From positions 6,532 to 70,531 of the forward strand of contig JAZNBB010000058.1 in the NCBI GenBank assembly GCA_045586845.1: DNA of 64,000 nt, written 5' to 3'. Each line of letters opens with the position of its first letter. Positions within the stretch are counted from its first letter, which is position 1. The notes under the pieces are model-generated. The model did no database searches. It had not been told where the DNA came from and worked only from the letters and a program-made list of their open reading frames with translations. Made by a program: the position numbers and the translations under genes. Positions 13,176-56,574 of the stretch are shown here, piece after piece. The stretch is from Eubacteriales bacterium (GTDB lineage: Bacteria > Bacillota > Clostridia > Oscillospirales > CAG-272).

Positions 13176-13204
13176 GTAGGGACCGGCGTCCTCGACGGTC
13201 CTAC
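13176..13204. repeat. GTAG-headed palindromic unit (type A, loop GCGTCCTCGA)
   Basis: GTAGGGACCG-GCGTCCTCGA-CGGTCCTAC, located between the GNAT-like gene and the carrier protein gene. Confidence 0.7.
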
Positions 13205-27671: not shown

Positions 27672-30011
27672 ATGAACATGAAAAGAAATGCATTCATATT
27701 ATTTGCTCTGCTATTGGCAATCACTATGCTGTTTGCTGCGTGCGATCAAGGCGAAGGTCAAGAAGAAATTACCAATGAAGTGATTGTTGGTGGTGACATC
27801 GTTACCGAGGAAGATGCCACAACGGATAATGGCGAAAACGCTGAGCCTGATGCGACAACTGAAGATCCCAACCAGCCGCACGAGCACGCATTTGGCGAGT
27901 GGACAACGGTCAAGGCGGCAACCTGCACGCAGGCAGGTAAGCAAGAGCGCATTTGTTCATGTGGCAAAAAAGAAAAAATGACTCTTGATGCACTCGGTCA
28001 TGCCGAAGTGATTGATGCGGCGGTAGAACCGACGTGCTCTGAGCAGGGATTAACAGAAGGCAAACATTGCGCTAATTGTGATACGGTATTTGTGGCGCAG
28101 GAGGTAATGCCTGCAACGGGAGAGCATGTGTATGTTAATGAAGTATGTCAGGGTTGCTCGGCGAAACTGCAATACAGTGAAGGCTTGGTGTTTGTATCAA
28201 ATGGTGATGGCACTTGTTACGTCAGTGATATTGGTTCCTGTACAGATACGGATATTGTGATTCCGAAACGTTCTCCTCTTGGCGATAGCGTGACGAGCAT
28301 TGGATCTTTGGCGTTCGATAACTGCGTTGGAATGGTAAGCATCACTATCCCTGATAGCGTGACAAGTATTGGCACTCAAGCATTCTACAATTGTACCGGC
28401 TTGAAGCGTATAACTATTCCGGATAGTGTGACAAGCATTGGCTGGAGTGCATTTTCTGACTGTACCGGTTTGACGCGTATTACCATTCCGGATAGCGTGG
28501 TAGACATTAATACCGGTGCATTCTCCAACTGCACCGGCTTAACGAGCGCTATCATTGGCGACAGCGTGATAAGTATTGGTATTGATGCATTCTGGCATTG
28601 CCGCAGCTTGACGAGCATTACGATTCCGGATAGCGTGACGAGCATTGGCAATAGCGCGTTCGGTGGCTGCACCGGCTTGATGAGTATTACCATTGGTGAT
28701 AGCGTGACGAGCATTGGCAATAGAGCGTTCGAAGGATGCACCGGTTTGACGCGTATTACCATTCCGGATGGTGTGACGAGCATAGGATATTCTGCGTTCG
28801 AAGGATGCACCGGCTTGACGAGCATTACTATTCCGGATAGCGTAACGAGCATTGCTTGTCCGGATAGCATGACAATTGTTGGCGATGGGGTGTTCTCAGG
28901 TTGCACCAGGTTGACAAGCTTAATTGTTTCGGAAGGAAACACTACTTATCACAGCGCAGGGAATTGCATTATTGAAACGGAAAGCAAAACCTTGGTTGCC
29001 GGATGCAATACGAGCATTATTCCTGCGGACGGTAGTGTGACAAGCATTGGTGCATTTGCGTTCTCCGGCTGCGAGGGTTTGACAAGTGTTACCATTCCGG
29101 ATGGCGTGACAAGCATTGGCATTAAAGCGTTCTCTATCTGCAAAGGCTTGACAAGTGTTACCATTCCGGATAGTGTGACAAGTATTGATACTCGTGCGTT
29201 CGATTTCTGCACAGGATTGACGAGCATTGCCATTCCGGATAGTGTGACAAGCCTTGGAGCATTTGTGTTCGAAGGGAGTTATGACCTCATTCGAAAAGAG
29301 CAGGGCGTTAGCTATGTGGATGGTTGGGTGGTGGATTGCGACTCTAATGTTACAACAGTTGACTTAACTGGCACGAGAGGCATAGCTGCATCAGCGTTTT
29401 ATGGGTGCAACTTGACGAGTATTGCTATTCCGGATAGTGTGATAAGCATTGGTGATAGGGCGTTTGAACGTTGTACAGGCATGACGAGTGTTACCATTGG
29501 AAACGGTGTGACAATGATTGGCGAGTATGCGTTCTCCGACTGTACCGAATTGACGAGTGTTACCATTGGAAACGGTGTGACAATGATTGGCAAGTATGCG
29601 TTCTCCGACTGTACCGGCTTGACGAACATCACGATTTCGGATAGCGTGGCAAGCATTGGTGATTCAGCGTTCAAGGGGTGCACAAATATGACGAGTATTA
29701 CTATTCCGGGCAATGTGACAAGTATCGGTGATTGGGCGTTTAAAGGTTGCACAAGTATGACGAGTGCTACCATTGGAAACGGTGTGACAATGATTGGCAA
29801 GTTTGCGTTCTCCGACTGTACCGGCTTGACGAACATCACGATTTCGGATAGCGTGACAAACATTGGATTTGCTGCGTTTTCTGACTGCACCGCCTTGACC
29901 GACGTGTATTTCACCGGTACCGAGCAAGAATGGGCTGCAATTGAGCTTGGAGACTTCAACGACGCTCTTTCAACCGCCACCATCCACTACAACTACGTTC
30001 CCGAAGAATAA
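27672..30011 (+). CDS. surface lipoprotein with BspA-type leucine-rich repeats
   Basis: A signal peptide with lipobox LFAAC is followed by a Cys-rich segment. Then come about 25 repeats of about 23 aa of the form ITIPDSVTSIGxxAFxxCTGLTS. Confidence 0.8.
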   Translation: MNMKRNAFILFALLLAITMLFAACDQGEGQEEITNEVIVGGDIVTEEDATTDNGENAEPDATTEDPNQPHEHAFGEWTTVKAATCTQAGKQERICSCGKKEKMTLDALGHAEVIDAAVEPTCSEQGLTEGKHCANCDTVFVAQEVMPATGEHVYVNEVCQGCSAKLQYSEGLVFVSNGDGTCYVSDIGSCTDTDIVIPKRSPLGDSVTSIGSLAFDNCVGMVSITIPDSVTSIGTQAFYNCTGLKRITIPDSVTSIGWSAFSDCTGLTRITIPDSVVDINTGAFSNCTGLTSAIIGDSVISIGIDAFWHCRSLTSITIPDSVTSIGNSAFGGCTGLMSITIGDSVTSIGNRAFEGCTGLTRITIPDGVTSIGYSAFEGCTGLTSITIPDSVTSIACPDSMTIVGDGVFSGCTRLTSLIVSEGNTTYHSAGNCIIETESKTLVAGCNTSIIPADGSVTSIGAFAFSGCEGLTSVTIPDGVTSIGIKAFSICKGLTSVTIPDSVTSIDTRAFDFCTGLTSIAIPDSVTSLGAFVFEGSYDLIRKEQGVSYVDGWVVDCDSNVTTVDLTGTRGIAASAFYGCNLTSIAIPDSVISIGDRAFERCTGMTSVTIGNGVTMIGEYAFSDCTELTSVTIGNGVTMIGKYAFSDCTGLTNITISDSVASIGDSAFKGCTNMTSITIPGNVTSIGDWAFKGCTSMTSATIGNGVTMIGKFAFSDCTGLTNITISDSVTNIGFAAFSDCTALTDVYFTGTEQEWAAIELGDFNDALSTATIHYNYVPEE
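29482..29856 (+). repeat. near-identical in-frame DNA repeats inside the LRR gene (69-bp tandem; 207-bp displaced copy)
   Basis: Three copies starting at 29482, 29551 and 29758 share tgacgagtg(t/c)taccattggaaacggtgtgacaatgattggc(a/g)agt(a/t)tgcgttctccgactgtacc. Copies 2 and 3 continue identically through ggcttgacgaacatcacgatttcggatagcgtg. Confidence 0.8.
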
Positions 30012-37008: not shown

Positions 37009-37061
37009 AAAAAAACGGATGGGCATCGGCGACCTGCTTTAAAGCAGATGCGCCGATGCCC
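37009..37061 (-). terminator. strong stem-loop with T-run (minus strand)
   Basis: On the minus strand, GGGCATCGGCG-(loop)-CGCCGATGCCC is followed by ATCCGTTTTTTT. Confidence 0.6.
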
Positions 37062-37079
37062 GATGGTGGGACTTGCGTC
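37057..37079 (-). repeat. decayed copy of the tRNA-Leu 3' end
   Basis: On the plus strand, TGCCCGATGGTGGGACTTG compares with the tRNA gene's TGCCGGTGGTGGGACTTG. They share the exact 12-mer TGGTGGGACTTG. Confidence 0.6.
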
Positions 37080-37149: not shown

Positions 37150-37180
37150 TTGCCGCAGGCGTGGGACTTACGAACCCCTA
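37150..37180 (-). repeat. second decayed copy of the tRNA-Leu 3' end
   Basis: On the plus strand, TGCCGCAGGCGTGGGACTTACGAACCCC compares with the tRNA gene's TGCCGGTGGTGGGACTTGAACCCAC. Confidence 0.5.
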
Positions 37181-37285
37181 TTTGCGCCCAAAGTTGCAAA
37201 GTGTGGGTAAGGCAACCTGCGCAAATATGCCGCAACGCGCCTATGGCGCGCAGCGACGGGGTTCGGCGTCGCAAAGCGCGGGCAC

Positions 37286-37324
37286 CAAAAAAGAGGGATC
37301 CAACCTGCGGTTGAGCCCCTCTTT
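37286..37324 (-). terminator. rho-independent terminator directly after tRNA-Leu
   Basis: On the minus strand, AAGAGGG-(CAACC-gca-GGTTG inner stem)-CCCTCTT is followed by TTTT. Confidence 0.65.
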
Positions 37325-37327
37325 TGT

Positions 37328-37413
37328 GGTGCCGGTGGTGGGACTTGAACCCACACGATGTTGCCATCGCCAGATTTTGAGTCTGGTACGTCTGCCGATT
37401 CCGTCACACCGGC
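37328..37413 (-). tRNA. tRNA-Leu (anticodon CAA), CCA encoded
   Basis: The reverse complement reads GCCGGTGTGACGGAATCGGCAGACGTACCAGACTCAAAATCTGGCGATGGCAACATCGTGTGGGTTCAAGTCCCACCACCGGCACCA. It has a 7-bp acceptor stem, the anticodon loop CTCAAAA, a long variable arm and a GTTCAAGTC T-loop. Confidence 0.9.
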
Positions 37414-50629: not shown

Positions 50630-50878
50630 TCAGTCGCAAACGTAGGGCAGAAGAGCAGCCTGACGAGCACGCTTGATAGCGGTGTTGAGCTCGCGTTGGT
50701 GAACGGCACAGGTGCCGGACATTCTTCTGGGCAGGATCTTGCCGCGCTCGCTGATGAACTTGCGAAGCTTAGCGGAATCCTTGTAATCGATATATGCAAC
50801 CTTATCGGCGCAGAAAATGCAAACCTTCTTTCTTCTGCGAACCACGGGGCGCGCAGGACGAGAAACGTTTTCAGTCAT
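50630..50878 (-). CDS. rpsR: 30S ribosomal protein S18
   Basis: [15 protein letters not shown]...[15 protein letters not shown]...QR is the S18 signature. Confidence 0.92.
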
Positions 50879-50916
50879 CTTATGAATCCTCCTGTTTGAT
50901 TTTGGGAACGATCGGC

Positions 50917-51387
50917 TCAGAAGGGCAGATCGTCGTCTGTTTTGATCTCCTCGAACTTAGGCGCAGAGCCTGCGGGGGAGGAGTAAGCGGGTGCACCGTA
51001 AGCATCGGGTGCATAACCGCCTGCCTGTGCATTGGGACCTTCGCTGCGGCTGTCCACAAACTGGACTTCTTCAGCGACGATGTCGGTCATGTAGCGCTTC
51101 TGCCCCTGTTGGTCGGTCCAGGATCTGTTCTGGATAGAGCCGATCACACAGATGGAAGAGCCTTTCTTAAAGAAACGGTTGACAAACTCAGCAGTAGAAC
51201 GCCAAGCGGTAACGGTAAAGAAATCGACCTCAGGTTGCTGACCGGACGCTGCGTCACGGGAAGCGAATCTGCGATTGACAGCCATACGGAACGTTACAAC
51301 GGCAATGCCGCTCTGTGTCTGCTTCAGTTCAGGATCAGCGGTCAATCTGCCGCCGAGGATGACTTTGTTCAGATTAAAATTTGCCAT
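50917..51387 (-). CDS. ssb: single-stranded DNA-binding protein
   Basis: N-terminal OB fold ([16 protein letters not shown]), a Gly/Pro/Ala-rich linker and the acidic tip DDDLPF. Confidence 0.92.
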
Positions 51388-51411
51388 GTTCTTTTGACCT
51401 CTTTGTGCGCC

Positions 51412-51822
51412 TTACTCAGCGTCAGCTGCCACTTCGGCAACTTCGGTAGCTACAGCAGCTTCAACAACTTCGGTGGCTACAGCAGCTTCGTCAACTTCGG
51501 TGGCGACAGCAGCCTTAGCAACGGGCTCGAAGTCCAGCTTGATGGTCAGAGAACGCATAATGTTCTCGTCGATCTGGAACAGACGGTCGAGCTCGGAAAG
51601 GAAGTTACCTGCAGCCTTGAAGGTCACGACTACGTAGTAGCCTTCGGGCATGTCATTGATAGGATATGCCAGGCGGCGCTTGCCCCACTGTGCAACCTCA
51701 ATGATAGTGCCGTTGTCAGCAATCAAAGAAGTGAACTTGTTCACAGTTGCATTGGTTGCTTCCTCACCGTTGGTCACGTCAACGATGAACAGACTTTCAT
51801 AAGAATTGAGTACCTTTTCCAT
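51412..51822 (-). CDS. rpsF: 30S ribosomal protein S6 with repeat-containing acidic C-terminal extension
   Basis: S6 core (YESLFIV..., WGKRRLAYPI) sits in the rpsF-ssb-rpsR order. There are about 40 extra C-terminal residues containing three AAVATEV(D/V/A)E repeats. Confidence 0.85.
   Translation of the reverse strand: MEKVLNSYESLFIVDVTNGEEATNATVNKFTSLIADNGTIIEVAQWGKRRLAYPINDMPEGYYVVVTFKAAGNFLSELDRLFQIDENIMRSLTIKLDFEPVAKAAVATEVDEAAVATEVVEAAVATEVAEVAADAE
51441..51521. repeat. three 27-bp tandem repeats within the rpsF 3' end
   Basis: Three tandem units of cttcggt(a/g)gc(t/g)acagcagc... start at 51441, 51468 and 51495. Confidence 0.75.
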
Positions 51823-52057
51823 GTGTTTTTACCTCCCTATGGACTTTAATTAGACCGCGCCACCTCTTCAATATTATTTGTGCGCGGTAGAGAGACGAAC
51901 TGCTTTGCAGTCCGCATCGAGGATATATTATACCACAAACAGGAAGTCTTGTCAATCCTTTTTGTAATATTATTTTTTACAAAAAATCACAAAATTCTTG
52001 CCAAAACCATGGAAAATATGATATAATTACATATAGTAAATTGTAATGGAGGTTACT

Positions 52058-53140: not shown

Positions 53141-53158
53141 GCAGCCCTGACCATATAG

Positions 53159-53185
53159 AAAAGGAGCGTTTTTCGCTCCTTTTTG
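53159..53185 (+). terminator. rho-independent terminator
   Basis: GAAAAGGAGCG-ttttt-CGCTCCTTTTT. Confidence 0.65.
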
Positions 53186-53284
53186 CAAAATCAGGAATAA
53201 TTTTCTGCAAATGTGACAGTTTTTTGCAAAAAACTATACTTTTAGTAATGGAGAGTATATTCTATCAACTAAAGGAGAAGTTCC

Positions 53285-53884
53285 ATGAAAAAAACAGACA
53301 CCCCGGATACCCGCCCGCTGCTGGAGGATCAGAAGATCATCGATCTGTATTGGCAAAGGGAAGAGAGCGCCATTACGGAAACCGATCGCAAGTACGGAAA
53401 GTATCTGATGACCATTGCCTACAATATCCTGCACAACGACCCCGACAGCGAGGAGTGCCTCAACGATACGTATCTTGGTACGTGGAACGCCATTCCGCCA
53501 GCCAAGCCCACGCTGTTTCAGGTCTTTTTGTCCAAGATCATGCGCAATACTGCCGTGGTACGCTACAAAAAGAACCACGCACAGAGCCGCGTGCCAAGCG
53601 AGATGACCGTTTCCTTGGACGAGTTGGAGCAGTACATACCCTACGAGCCCTCGGCAGAGGACGATTACGACGTGTACAGGCTCAGTCGACTGCTCAGCGA
53701 CTATTTGCGCAAAATGTCCGAAAAGCGCGCGTTTATCTTTATTTGCAGATACTATTGTGCCGATCGCATTTCGGATATAGCCGCCATGCTGCACGTCAGC
53801 GAGAGCACGGTCTACCGTGAGCTGGACGAGATCAAAAAGGGCTTGCGCGAAATTCTGATCAAGGAGGGATATCGCAATGCGTAA
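53285..53884 (+). CDS. sigma-70 family RNA polymerase sigma factor (ECF-like, regions 2 and 4)
   Basis: Region 2-like block YGKYLMTIAYNILHNDPDSEECLNDTYLGTW and region 4 HTH block ISDIAAMLHVSESTVYRELDEIKKGL. RBS aaaggag. Confidence 0.75.
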   Translation: MKKTDTPDTRPLLEDQKIIDLYWQREESAITETDRKYGKYLMTIAYNILHNDPDSEECLNDTYLGTWNAIPPAKPTLFQVFLSKIMRNTAVVRYKKNHAQSRVPSEMTVSLDELEQYIPYEPSAEDDYDVYRLSRLLSDYLRKMSEKRAFIFICRYYCADRISDIAAMLHVSESTVYRELDEIKKGLREILIKEGYRNA

Positions 53885-55838
53885 GGATAAAACTGAATTT
53901 ACGCTGGACGTGGTGTCCGGTATTGATGAGGAGATCGTAGATCGTAATCTTGCAAAACGCTATAAGTTGTGGCAGAGAAGAGGCAAGCGCAGTCGCGTTG
54001 CGCTGATCTCGCTTGTGGCAGCACTTTTGAGTATTTGCCTTGTCTTGGGCGCATTTATGATCGTGCCGCTCTTTGGCAAGCAGGTACCTGTATACCAAGG
54101 TATGACCGTATCTACCGAAGCACCCGTCGTGCCCGATTCTGCACTTGCGTTGCCCGTGCCCATGACCTCTGTGCTGAGCACGTCAAGCACGCTGCCCGCA
54201 TACGGACTTGTGCCGCTTGGAGAGCAGGAAACGCCTGAACCCCAAGCGAACCCCGAGGACGAAACCGAACCTGTCATTTTCGGCAAGACGTATTACGCGC
54301 TCAAAAATGAGGATATTTACATTCATATTCACATTTCCAACCCGGACGGCTTTGAGATCGTTTCCTTTACGCTCAACGGCGTCAAGTATACGAACTATAT
54401 GTTTGAGCCGGGCTCTGATCTGGAGACGCTGATCCTCAAATACAACGTAGGTGACGTGGACGGCTTGCAGGAATACACCATCGATGCCATCAAGTACATC
54501 GACGGAGAAGCGATCAAGGACGTCCGTATGAAAGGTGACAAGACGGTTAAGGTCTACGTTAACGACGATACGCAGGCGTTGCGATTTGAGGCGGAGCAGG
54601 AGTTTACCACCTTGACCTTTACCCCCGTGTGGAACGAGAGCTTTACAGGGGAAAAGACCATTCAAACGCTTGCACTCTACAAGGGTGAAGAGCTCCTGCG
54701 CGAGCTTTCACCCACCGATACCGAGATCCGGGATCTGCCCATGGAAACGCGCCTGATGCTGGTTGCCACCTATCAAGATGGCGACACAGTCAAAACGCTG
54801 CGTTACATATTCGATACGCCTAAATATTCCGAGGGGCTGCAGTTCAATAACGGAGTGATCGTTGGAATAGGAGCCTGCACCGATTCCGTGCTGTATCTCA
54901 ATGCTCCGATCGGGGAAAAAGCCTTTGAAAGCAACAACGGTATATATACCGTATATCTGGGTCCCGGCGTCACGTCGGTTGGCAGCAACGCTTTTCACGC
55001 TTGCACAAAGTTAAGCAAGGTCGTGCTGTCGGAAAGCCCTATCAGCCTTGGCGAATGGGTTTTTGCAGAGTGCATCAGTCTTGCGGATGTCAGCCTTTCC
55101 GGTCAAGTTGCAGAGATTCCGGATTATGCATATTTTGCATGTGAAAGCTTGGAGAGCATAGTGATCCCCGAGGGCGTAACAAAGCTTGGCGTGGGGGTGT
55201 TTGAGGCATGCGGGAAGCTTAAGAGCGTTCAACTTCCGGAGTCATTGAAGTCTGTCGGCGCTACTTGCTTTAGTCAATGTGGGGTTCTGGAGAGCATAGA
55301 ACTGCCGGACGGTATTACTGAAATTGGCGCGAATCCTTTCAACAGTTGTTATAGCCTTAAAAGCATCAAGCTCCCCGCAAGCCTTACAGAGATTCCCGAC
55401 AGTATGTTTTCCGGATTAAATAATCTTTATAGCATAGTGATTCCGGAGAGCGTAACATCTATCGGTCATATGGCATTCATCGGTAGCGCGCTTGGCAAGG
55501 TTGAATTTCCGGAAAGCGTTACTTCAATCGGGATAGGTGCTTTTCTTGGCTGTGAGAATCTTCGGAGTGTAACGATCCCGGCGTCTGTTACGTACGTTGA
55601 ATGGACTGCGTTTTCGCAATGTGAGAACTTGAAGACCATGTACATCGAGGGAAATGATACCAAATTCGTTCTATCGGGAGCTGCACCGGGACAGGCACCC
55701 TTTGAAATTCGTTACTACCTGAATGACGTGCATTATACGGGAACCATGCAGGAATGGCAAACCTATTACGGGAATGCCCCCAGATGGGCAGAAATGAAAT
55801 GTACCGTTCACTGCACGGATGGCGATATTGCGTATTGA
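53877..55838 (+). CDS. single-pass membrane protein: anti-sigma-like N-terminus plus BspA-type LRR ectodomain
   Basis: The start overlaps the sigma gene stop by 8 nt. A cytoplasmic roughly 45 aa is followed by a TM helix (VALISLVAALLSICLVLGAFMIV). The extracytoplasmic region carries about 10 LRR units (VIPEGVTKLGVGVFEACGKLKSV and similar). Confidence 0.6.
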   Translation: MRKDKTEFTLDVVSGIDEEIVDRNLAKRYKLWQRRGKRSRVALISLVAALLSICLVLGAFMIVPLFGKQVPVYQGMTVSTEAPVVPDSALALPVPMTSVLSTSSTLPAYGLVPLGEQETPEPQANPEDETEPVIFGKTYYALKNEDIYIHIHISNPDGFEIVSFTLNGVKYTNYMFEPGSDLETLILKYNVGDVDGLQEYTIDAIKYIDGEAIKDVRMKGDKTVKVYVNDDTQALRFEAEQEFTTLTFTPVWNESFTGEKTIQTLALYKGEELLRELSPTDTEIRDLPMETRLMLVATYQDGDTVKTLRYIFDTPKYSEGLQFNNGVIVGIGACTDSVLYLNAPIGEKAFESNNGIYTVYLGPGVTSVGSNAFHACTKLSKVVLSESPISLGEWVFAECISLADVSLSGQVAEIPDYAYFACESLESIVIPEGVTKLGVGVFEACGKLKSVQLPESLKSVGATCFSQCGVLESIELPDGITEIGANPFNSCYSLKSIKLPASLTEIPDSMFSGLNNLYSIVIPESVTSIGHMAFIGSALGKVEFPESVTSIGIGAFLGCENLRSVTIPASVTYVEWTAFSQCENLKTMYIEGNDTKFVLSGAAPGQAPFEIRYYLNDVHYTGTMQEWQTYYGNAPRWAEMKCTVHCTDGDIAY

Positions 55839-55946: not shown

Positions 55947-55975
55947 TTGACATTTGAAAAAATACACAGTATAAT
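55947..55975 (+). promoter_or_regulatory. sigma-A type promoter (TTGACA-17-TATAAT) for the tRNA gene
   Basis: Perfect hexamers with a 17-nt spacer. The -10 box ends 17 nt upstream of the tRNA 5' end. Confidence 0.65.
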
Positions 55976-55992: not shown

Positions 55993-56069
55993 GGGCTATT
56001 AGCTCAGTTGGTCAGAGCTACCGGCTCATAACCGGTTGGTCCGGGGTTCGAGTCCCTGATAGCCCACCA
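55993..56069 (+). tRNA. tRNA with anticodon CAT (elongator Met or lysidine-modified Ile2), CCA encoded
   Basis: The sequence is GGGCTATTAGCTCAGTTGGTCAGAGCTACCGGCTCATAACCGGTTGGTCCGGGGTTCGAGTCCCTGATAGCCCACCA. G1-C72 are paired, so it is not an initiator. The anticodon arm CCGGCTCATAACCGG resembles tRNA-Ile2 genes, but I cannot decide from sequence alone. Confidence 0.9.
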
Positions 56070-56072
56070 AAA

Positions 56073-56110
56073 AGAGCAAGGGGGTGCTTGTGCACCCCCT
56101 TGCTCTTTTT
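56073..56110 (+). terminator. rho-independent terminator after the tRNA
   Basis: AGAGCAAGGGGGTGC-ttg-TGCACCCCCTTGCTCT followed by TTTT. Confidence 0.8.
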
Positions 56111-56120
56111 GGTGTACTTT

Positions 56121-56422
56121 CCCGACTCAGAACCCCGCACGCGCGGCTTTGCCGCTCGTGCAAGGTTTGCGCCGGAAAAGTGAAGAAATATCACGACTAT
56201 TGGCGCAAACATGGGTTCTGAGTCCCTGGTGTCCCATTCAGACGCCTATCCCAATTCGCCCCACGCGCGGCTTTGCCGCTCGTGCAAGGTTTGCGCCGGA
56301 AAAGTAAACGGTAAGGGCGTGCGATTGCGCAAATGTGCAAGCGCGATGCGCTTGCGATGTTCTGAATCCCTGGTGTCCCATTCAGACGACTATCCCGATT
56401 CACCCGCACGCGCGGCTTTGCC
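56121..56422. repeat. tandem repeat (about 144 bp period) containing tRNA 3'-end-like blocks
   Basis: Block A, GTTCTGA(G/A)TCCCTGGTGTCCCATTCAGACG(C/A)CTATCCC(A/G)ATTC, occurs at 56215 and 56359. Block B, C(G)CACGCGCGGCTTTGCCGCTCGTGCAAGGTTTGCGCCGGAAAAGT, occurs at 56133 and 56259, with a truncated copy at 56401-56422. Confidence 0.8.
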
Positions 56423-56471
56423 GAAAGACTCTTTCACCCGCGTTGGCACAGGCTGAGCAACCCGTCTTTTT

Positions 56472-56497
56472 GTAGGGGACGACGTCCTCGACGTCCC
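56472..56497. repeat. GTAG-headed palindromic unit (type A), forward
   Basis: GTAGGGGACG-ACGTCCTCGA-CGTCCC. Confidence 0.75.
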
Positions 56498-56548: not shown

Positions 56549-56574
56549 GGTGCGTCGAGGACGTCGCACCCTAC
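56549..56574. repeat. GTAG-headed palindromic unit (type A), reverse
   Basis: GGTGCG-TCGAGGACGT-CGCACCCTAC; its reverse complement is GTAGGGTGCG-ACGTCCTCGA-CGCACC. It forms an inverted doublet with 56472-56497, separated by a 51-bp spacer. Confidence 0.75.

Follow-up and report, generated by a model that had tools for sequence, protein, structure and literature searches.

What are the repeated units that follow the tRNA(CAU) gene in a 64,000-nucleotide stretch of DNA (hereafter, the window) from contig JAZNBB010000058.1 of an uncultured Eubacteriales bacterium? These units carry imperfect copies of the tRNA 3' end. Three origins had been considered in the initial annotation of the window: scars left by elements that repeatedly integrated and excised, a tandem array of tRNA genes in decay, or a small mobile or structured element derived from the tRNA end. 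The last of these fitted our results best, as we found a conserved three-way junction, a variable copy number and a second tRNA locus carrying the same kind of unit. The units are probably tRNA-linked repeat modules of the kind described in Escherichia coli as tRNA-linked repeats (TLRs) or RtT, to which they are not homologous.

Repeat modules downstream of tRNA(CAU)

All features of this locus lie on the forward strand. The tRNA(CAU) gene (55993-56069) was identified by ARAGORN and by the Rfam tRNA model (69.8 bits). ARAGORN typed it as Met; its sequence appears closer to the Bacillus tRNA-Ile2 of the lysidine type than to an elongator or initiator tRNA-Met. The gene is preceded by a predicted promoter, TTGACA-17 nt-TATAAT (55947-55975), matching the consensus at 12 of 12 positions, in a context (TATAATATATARGTCG) common to tRNA(CAU) and the tRNA-Leu of the window. 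It is followed by an intrinsic terminator, T1 (56067-56112), with a 20-bp stem and A- and U-tracts flanking both sides. T1 stems differ among relatives, and the changes are compensated. Two full modules and one truncated module lie downstream of T1. Module 1 (56124-56236), a three-way junction scoring 124.8 bits with our covariance model R1, comprises a P1 5' arm (56124-56135), a P2 hairpin (56137-56161), P3 (56165-56210) and a P1 3' arm (56213-56224). The latter opens a copy of the tRNA T-arm and 3' end, hereafter named the echo (56213-56236). Module 2 (56259-56380; 54.8 bits with R1) has lost the P1 5' arm and contains P2 (56262-56284), P3 (56289-56334), an extra hairpin (56337-56355) and an echo (56359-56380). 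Module 3 (56403-56423) is cut off after the P2 loop (CCCGCACGCGCGGCTTTGCCG).

Both full modules end in an echo with an extra T. The source of the echoes is the 3' part of the tRNA (GGTTCGAGTCCCTGATAGCCCACCA, 56045-56069); they read GTTCTGAGTCCCTGGTGTCCCA at 56215 and GTTCTGAATCCCTGGTGTCCCA at 56359, exactly where the initial annotation had placed them, 144 bp apart. The extra T and three substitutions common to both, and the further G>A change in the second, were likewise found as described. The window echoes are thus partly decayed, with 10 nt identical to the tRNA and then 5 of 8. The conserved block reported to recur does so: its copies at 56139 and 56263 are identical over 43 nt, and a 21-nt copy forms module 3. 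The description as 144-bp tandem units holds for the distance between the echoes but not for the period, since the units measure 124 and 144 bp and the blocks are spaced by 124 and 144-145 bp. This uneven period is due to the extra hairpin of unit 2. Because the units are unequal, the array was not called by Tandem Repeats Finder. Each unit had also been thought to start with the tRNA-end copy; in the comparison with relatives, the echo instead turned out to form the unit's 3' end.

The similarity to the tRNA end is well above background, as shuffled sequences gave 0.00 expected matches for the block and echo patterns. The T-arm-like pattern GGTTC-N0-2-RAGTCCCWS had four matches in the 64 kb, corresponding to the two tRNAs and the two echoes (0.00 expected from shuffles). 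Rfam searches at the tRNA(CAU) and tRNA-Leu loci returned tRNAs only; matches to miRNA and sRNA families corresponded to the terminator hairpin and were far below threshold. An open reading frame (ORF) of 81 amino acids across the repeats (56211-56456) was rejected as coding, since it lacks a ribosome-binding site and terminators break it up in relatives.

A three-way junction closed by the echo

The modules are ~105-125 nt long and are predicted to fold into a three-way junction of helices P1, P2 and P3. Folding of module 1, from the arm at 56124 to the echo, gave a minimum free energy of -59.6 kcal/mol (z = -8.4). The same junction was obtained by independent folding in 13 of 18 distinct modules, with z-scores from -5.4 to -8.4. 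P1, the helix that closes the junction, is formed by a 5' arm (NGAACCC; AGAACCC at the CAU locus) and a T-arm-like strand (GGGTTCN; GGGTTCT in the echo). In module 1, the arm GACTCAGAACCC (56124-56135) is perfectly complementary to GGGTTCTGAGTC (56213-56224). This complementarity had been noted in the initial annotation, and its inverted and direct matches turn out to be the two strands of one closing helix, GACUCAGAACCC / GGGUUCUGAGUC. The extra T of the echo pairs with an A of the P1 5' arm. P2 is a G+C-rich hairpin (GCACGCGCGGC-UUU-GCCGCUCGUGC in module 1) of which two sequence types, starting with GCACGCGCGGC and GCATAAGCGTCGC, coexist within the same arrays. P3 has an invariant base (UUUGCGC/GCGCAAA) and a tip that evolves freely; in module 1 it reads GUUUGCGCCGG...UUGGCGCAAAC, with a 24-nt interior. 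The extra hairpin of unit 2 was also found in unit 2 of two related loci, L002 and L046 (L numbers designate loci from other genomes). A minihelix with the true acceptor stem was rejected as a candidate structure, as the partner GCTAT/ATAGC seen in L002 unit 1 is not conserved.

Among first modules at orthologous positions in four species, identity is 96-100% for the 5' arm, P2 and the P3 5' strand, and 54% for the P3 interior. Third-codon positions of the neighbouring uvrB gene are 66-74% identical between the window and its relatives. This comparison indicates purifying selection on the module stems. The covariance model R1 was built from type-I modules and recovered all types. In its alignment, 90% of cells are paired, 10 pairs are changed on both sides and the P2 pairs are compensatory in 6 of 10 cases, with no more than 2 of 500 shuffles reaching any observed pairing measure; these counts come from a model-fitted alignment of related sequences, which inflates the statistics. 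P2 and P3 were independently predicted by RNAalifold. The closing pair of P3 occurs in G-C, G-U and A-U states, and G-U also occurs at pairs 70/98 and 71/97; such states favour an RNA with the same sense as the tRNA.

A homologous module downstream of tRNA-Leu(CAA)

The only other tRNA gene of the window, tRNA-Leu(CAA) (37327-37413, ARAGORN), lies on the reverse strand, as do all features of its locus. It is followed by a terminator T1 (37285-37326) and by a module (37161-37272) that R1 detected over the full model length (E = 2.6e-6) and that folds into a three-way junction (z = -5.4). This module consists of a P1 5' arm, CGAACCCC (37258-37265), P2 (37229-37257), P3 (37180-37226) and an echo, GGGGTTCGTAAGTCCCAC (37161-37178). 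Its P2 sequence is of a third kind, its P3 core is unchanged and its P1 is formed by CGAACCCC / GGGGUUCG. The echo corresponds to the T-arm of its own tRNA (GGGTTCAAGTCCCAC) plus two extra bases. A second echo, GCAAGTCCCACCATCGG (37060-37076), matches the tRNA at 15 of 16 nt (94%) and overlaps a second terminator, T2 (37009-37061). The outer pair of P1 covaries between the two loci, being C-G at the Leu locus and A-U at the CAU locus.

Homologous modules are therefore present at both tRNA genes of the window (2/2). The P3 pattern had three matches in the 64 kb against 0.04 expected, all confined to the two tRNA loci, and an R1 scan of the 64 kb found no copy away from a tRNA. The family is thus found behind different tRNA genes, and at each of them the copy bears the tail of the local tRNA. 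Contigs carrying the gene that adjoins the tRNA-Leu array were mostly very short, often <3 kb; assemblies appear to break at repeat-rich tRNA trailers, which suggests that modules may be under-represented in metagenome assemblies.

Variation of the locus among related genomes

A scan of representative genomes with the P2 20-mer gave one true locus (L002, in a Eubacteriales metagenome-assembled genome) and two chance matches (L001 and L003). The L002 locus is orthologous to that of the window (tRNA(CAU)-uvrB). An exact look-up of the window UvrB returned no record, and homologues were used to reach relatives. These form a tight clade (93-98% identical), beyond which identity drops to 78%, and more than 15 versions of the locus were obtained from their contigs. 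The module was found downstream of tRNA(CAU) throughout the 93-98% clade, with a copy number varying from 0 to 3. At least 10 related loci have it directly downstream of the tRNA and in the same orientation. L002 carries three modules, L025 and L046 two, and L035, whose contig begins inside the array, at least two. One complete module each was detected in L026, L032, L033, L038, L049 and L050, the second module of L038 being cut by an insertion, and none in L027 and L031. The same tRNA(CAU) also occurs without modules in a metagenome (L004). The truncation of module 3 in the window is shared by L036, and the third module of L002 is complete. Three modules were thus already present at the orthologous locus in a species with ~34% third-codon divergence. 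No tRNA was found upstream of uvrB at the outgroup loci (UvrB 77-78% identical).

The L026 and L027 loci encode identical UvrB proteins, yet a 175-bp module-plus-terminator block bounded by TCCTTTTTTGCTTG is present in the former and absent from the latter. Echoes are better kept in relatives than in the window: they are near-perfect (GGGTTCTAAGTCCCTGATAGCCCACCA) and follow the pattern GGGTTCT(A/G)A(A/G)TCCCTGATAGCCCACCA. In L002 unit 1, L026 and L049, the echo agrees with the local tRNA at all of 20 nt, CCA included. A second complete terminator follows the echo in L002 unit 1, L026 and L049/50. Relative to uvrB, the segment running from the promoter through tRNA and terminator to the module has the opposite orientation in some species of the clade, namely in L026, L028-L030, L032, L049 and L050 (about 2050-2320).

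The T-loop of tRNA(CAU) is polymorphic in the clade, with GAG, AAG, GAA and AAA variants. Of these, AAG, GAA and AAA are each common to the tRNA and its echo or echoes within one genome (L002, L026 and L038). The extra T was never lost by an echo and never gained by a tRNA in any genome compared. This matching within genomes, together with the constancy of the extra T, indicates that tRNA and echo exchange sequence, both forms being kept by selection.

Several other changes were observed around the arrays. In L034 the tRNA is lost altogether and a fragment, GATTCACCCCACGCGCGG, remains. Repetitive extragenic palindrome (REP)-like elements, with a GTAG head and a palindrome (GTAGGGGACGACGTCCTCGACGTCCC), are found in the window at 56472-56497 (+), 56549-56574 (-) and 13176-13197 (+). 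Their counterparts in relatives (GTAGGGGCGATTCACGAATCGCCCGC) lie between modules in L025, L033, L035 and L002, often as inverted pairs, inserted directly after echoes in place of the CCA and terminator. Another repeat family, GTTCGACT...hairpin...CGCTCAGGATGACA, is present in 4-5 copies upstream of uvrB in L042 (1-400), and an inverted pair of this repeat flanks the ~400-bp insertion that truncates the second module of L038 (1950-2400). In L046 (1155-1200), 22 bp (ATAATATATAGGTCGTCAGG) between the -10 box and the tRNA(CAU) start are duplicated in tandem.

Comparison with the tRNA-linked repeats of E. coli

The TLRs of E. coli were reportedly described by Egan and Landy in 1978 and by Rudd in 1999. 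At the tyrT locus of E. coli, taken as a positive control, we found 178-bp repeats that each match the Rfam family RtT (RF00391) with 133-138 bits and end in the last 19 nt of tRNA-Tyr, a stretch starting inside the T-loop. Their number ranged from 1 to 14 copies per genome across 4741 E. coli genomes. In the curated RtT structure, the 5' arm and the echo form the closing helix, and ...CCACCA is left single-stranded. E. coli has 22 TLR copies in all; they lie behind tRNA or rRNA genes, ten loci having one to five each, and every copy shares an identical stretch of 18-19 bp with the 3' end of the gene before it (PMC8144298). Their function is unknown except for rrA, rrB and rrF, and the repeated end was proposed to be a processing signal (PMC8144298).

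The Clostridia modules resemble these repeats in lying directly downstream of tRNA genes (or, in E. coli, rRNA genes), in the same orientation, at several loci and in few copies at each. The copied tail starts inside the T-loop in both (AATCCTTCCCCCACCACCA at tyrT, (G/A)A(G/A)TCCCTGATAGCCCACCA in the Clostridia modules), and in both the copy number differs among strains. As in RtT, a closing helix of 5' arm and echo encloses several hairpins, and, as for rrB, some copies are located between dual terminators (PMC8144298). Of the features that define the TLR class, all those testable on DNA are present in the Clostridia modules; co-transcription with the upstream gene and processing to a discrete RNA, which also define the class, are part of the model proposed below. 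The two families also differ. They have no sequence or model homology: RF00391 gave no RtT match to the CAU locus (E <= 10) or to the Leu locus (E <= 1). The Clostridia modules come from an uncultured Clostridia/Ruminococcaceae-like lineage, outside Enterobacterales. In the Clostridia P1, an extra antisense arm pairs with the 5' strand of the T-stem and the loop, whereas in RtT the two T-stem strands pair with each other across an inserted domain. Finally, the Clostridia echo has an extra T-loop base, and a strong intrinsic terminator lies between the tRNA and the first module.

Another point of comparison is provided by small RNAs from 3' external transcribed spacers, such as 3'ETS-leuZ (cited in PMC8144298). 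As in that case, a functional RNA could come from a tRNA trailer through the processing machinery. Unlike the Clostridia modules, trailers of the 3'ETS type are single-copy, have no echo of the tRNA end and are not located behind a strong terminator.

Alternative explanations

The echoes could be attL/attR scars left by tyrosine-integrase elements that target the T-loop, the module being the remnant of an attP arm. Identity to the tRNA indeed runs from the T-loop interior to the CCA, the classic sublocation of tRNA-targeting integrases. Partial tRNA genes left by integrative elements likewise appear as direct repeats of a tRNA 3' segment downstream of an intact tRNA at a strain-variable locus (PMC9897764 for the phenomenon). 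Occupied and empty sites differ between strains (L026 and L027), and echo T-loops that track the tRNA could stem from reciprocal exchange at a crossover in the loop. Genuine displaced tRNA ends do exist. A gapped tRNA-end pattern scan of metagenomes returned mostly actinobacterial tRNA-Lys(CTT) sharing the same 22-nt 3' sequence, and displaced tRNA-Lys 3' ends were seen in metagenomes (L007, L011, L015, L020 and L023) and on a viral contig (L024); they are perfect from the anticodon stem on and lack the tRNA 5' half, the typical attR/attP pattern. In contrast to these perfect, uninterrupted att copies of 34+ nt, every echo has an extra base, and the spacer is a conserved structured module with no element or integrase between copies. 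Housekeeping genes flank the modules, and no integrase is present among the flanking genes seen, either in the window, as already reported, or at any syntenic locus; rpsF, a metallo-beta-lactamase-fold gene and uvrB/uvrA are the neighbours. Searches of phage, plasmid and viral collections with the module gave no real match; five viral pattern matches failed the covariance model and had no tRNAs. Three independent sequence types always form the same discrete structured unit of ~105-175 bp, 11-19 nt after a terminator, and decaying scars would show neither the purifying selection on the stems nor their compensatory changes. Moreover, the L026/L027 difference ends in the terminator tail (TCCTTTTTTGCTTG) and not in the tRNA, and the terminator at the empty site (L027) is the tRNA-proximal one. 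Given the constant extra base, the structured spacing of 100-175 bp, the housekeeping flanks, the negative database searches and the three modules found at the orthologous locus despite ~34% third-codon divergence, an origin by serial integration and excision appears very unlikely. Decayed tandem tRNA genes keeping their 3' end only, the other origin that had been put forward, would explain why the 3' end, the CCA and even the terminator are duplicated in relatives, and a weak by-eye similarity links GACTATTGGCGCA to the tRNA 5' end, GGCTATTAGCTCA. This similarity to a 5' acceptor strand is not conserved among relatives, the units contain no tRNA 5' half, and ARAGORN and the Rfam tRNA model detected the real tRNA but nothing in the units, even at E <= 10. 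The sequence preceding the echo is a conserved three-way junction in common with the tRNA-Leu module, not a tRNA body. As the cloverleaf tests failed and a non-tRNA core is shared at two tRNAs, this origin is effectively refuted.

Two further explanations give the module a life at the DNA level. It could be a selfish miniature element, similar to miniature inverted-repeat transposable elements (MITEs) or cis-mobilisable, that uses an enzyme in trans, inserts at T-loops or terminators and duplicates the tRNA 3' end and terminator. First modules do have terminal inverted arms of 7-12 bp, two unrelated tRNA genes carry the family, each with the echo of the local tRNA, the 175-bp presence/absence polymorphism is bounded by direct repeats, and REP-like mobile palindromes occupy the same intergenic regions. 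Against such mobility, the stems of orthologous modules are 96-100% identical at ~30% synonymous divergence while the P3 tip has diverged, which argues for long residence under selection and not for recent transposition. Only one representative genome has the exact P2 20-mer, and there the sequence is limited to the tRNA(CAU)-uvrB locus; R1 detects no module away from a tRNA in 64 kb, and the short target duplication expected of MITE- or REP-type repeats was not seen, copies being located only beside tRNAs in the 64 kb. We know of no transposition mechanism that gives a target duplication of ~65 bp. We therefore regard a selfish element as unlikely. It is likewise unlikely that the module is a DNA element without any RNA role, such as a protein-binding inverted repeat (TTTGCGC-N30-GCGCAAA) or a cruciform, with the echo as a by-product of local duplication. 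An invariant P3 base that does not covary, the terminators enclosing the L026 modules on both sides and the absence of a predicted internal promoter would suit such an element. The compensatory changes in P2 do not, nor do the G-U states of the P3 closing pair and of pairs 70/98 and 71/97, which suit a sense RNA and not duplex DNA. The architecture moreover parallels that of RtT, which is an RNA (PMC8144298).

A proposed model for the tRNA-linked modules

The interpretation that we favor remains that of tRNA-linked repeat modules of the TLR/RtT kind. According to the model that we propose, some transcripts from the very strong tRNA promoter would read through T1. The echo and the second terminator would provide the module RNA with tRNA-like signals for 3'-end formation and processing, and processing would release a small structured RNA. 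Recombination or gene conversion involving the tRNA 3' end, the echoes and the terminators, which resemble one another, would expand, contract and invert the arrays, and the same exchange would keep the T-loop of the echo matched to the tRNA. We consider this model of transcription, processing and recombination likely as a whole, with less confidence in its RNA steps.

Several observations weigh against this interpretation. As a long perfect hairpin with a U-tract, T1 should bring most transcription to a halt, and no promoter was predicted inside the array. P1 is missing from modules that are not directly behind a terminator. The acceptor part of the window echoes is decayed (GGTGTCCCA where the tRNA has ATAGCCCA) and is therefore not strictly required. 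The P3 stem shows no covariation because its sequence is invariant, and might just as well be an inverted repeat bound by a protein at the DNA level; the inflation of the pairing statistics mentioned above belongs here as well. Dispersal rests on two tRNA loci in one 64-kb window. The Leu locus is known from the window, as in the one relative looked up the neighbouring gene is not adjacent to tRNA-Leu.

Further ideas can be considered. The closing helix (~12 bp or equivalent, with a single-stranded ...CCA tail) possibly mimics an acceptor/T-arm minihelix, in which case the module may be a substrate or a decoy of a tRNA-processing enzyme. An active copying mechanism might also install the module behind tRNA (perhaps rRNA) genes and duplicate the 3' end and terminator, so that the E. 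coli TLRs and the Clostridia modules would be independent products of one general process. Such a mechanism, which we find doubtful, could be a T-loop-targeting recombination or template switching rather than slow duplication and selection.

Other features of the window

An insertion of ~2.7 kb (53141-55838) separates the metallo-beta-lactamase-fold gene from the tRNA(CAU) promoter in the window, in comparison with all related loci. It encodes an extracytoplasmic function (ECF)-type sigma factor (53285-53884) and a BspA-type leucine-rich-repeat protein (53877-55838). Elsewhere, a large ORF (27672-30011) contains 69-nt tandem repeats (28344-29810) that may encode repeats of the leucine-rich type, and a 27-nt tandem repeat was found at 51431-51522 within ORF 50794-51849.

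Significance of a second family

TLRs have been known in E. coli since 1978, and in the literature searched they are discussed only for Enterobacterales. The modules described here constitute a second, sequence-unrelated family in distant gut Clostridia that follows the same rules: location behind a tRNA, a tail copied from that tRNA, a closing helix based on this tail and variable copy number. The existence of a second independent family argues for a general selected solution, or a general mechanism, behind the arrangement, and against an oddity of E. coli. Comparing both families makes the question of what TLRs do testable, since the shared features point to what matters. Such echoes can also pass for integration scars or partial tRNA genes in genome annotation and in the prediction of genomic islands.

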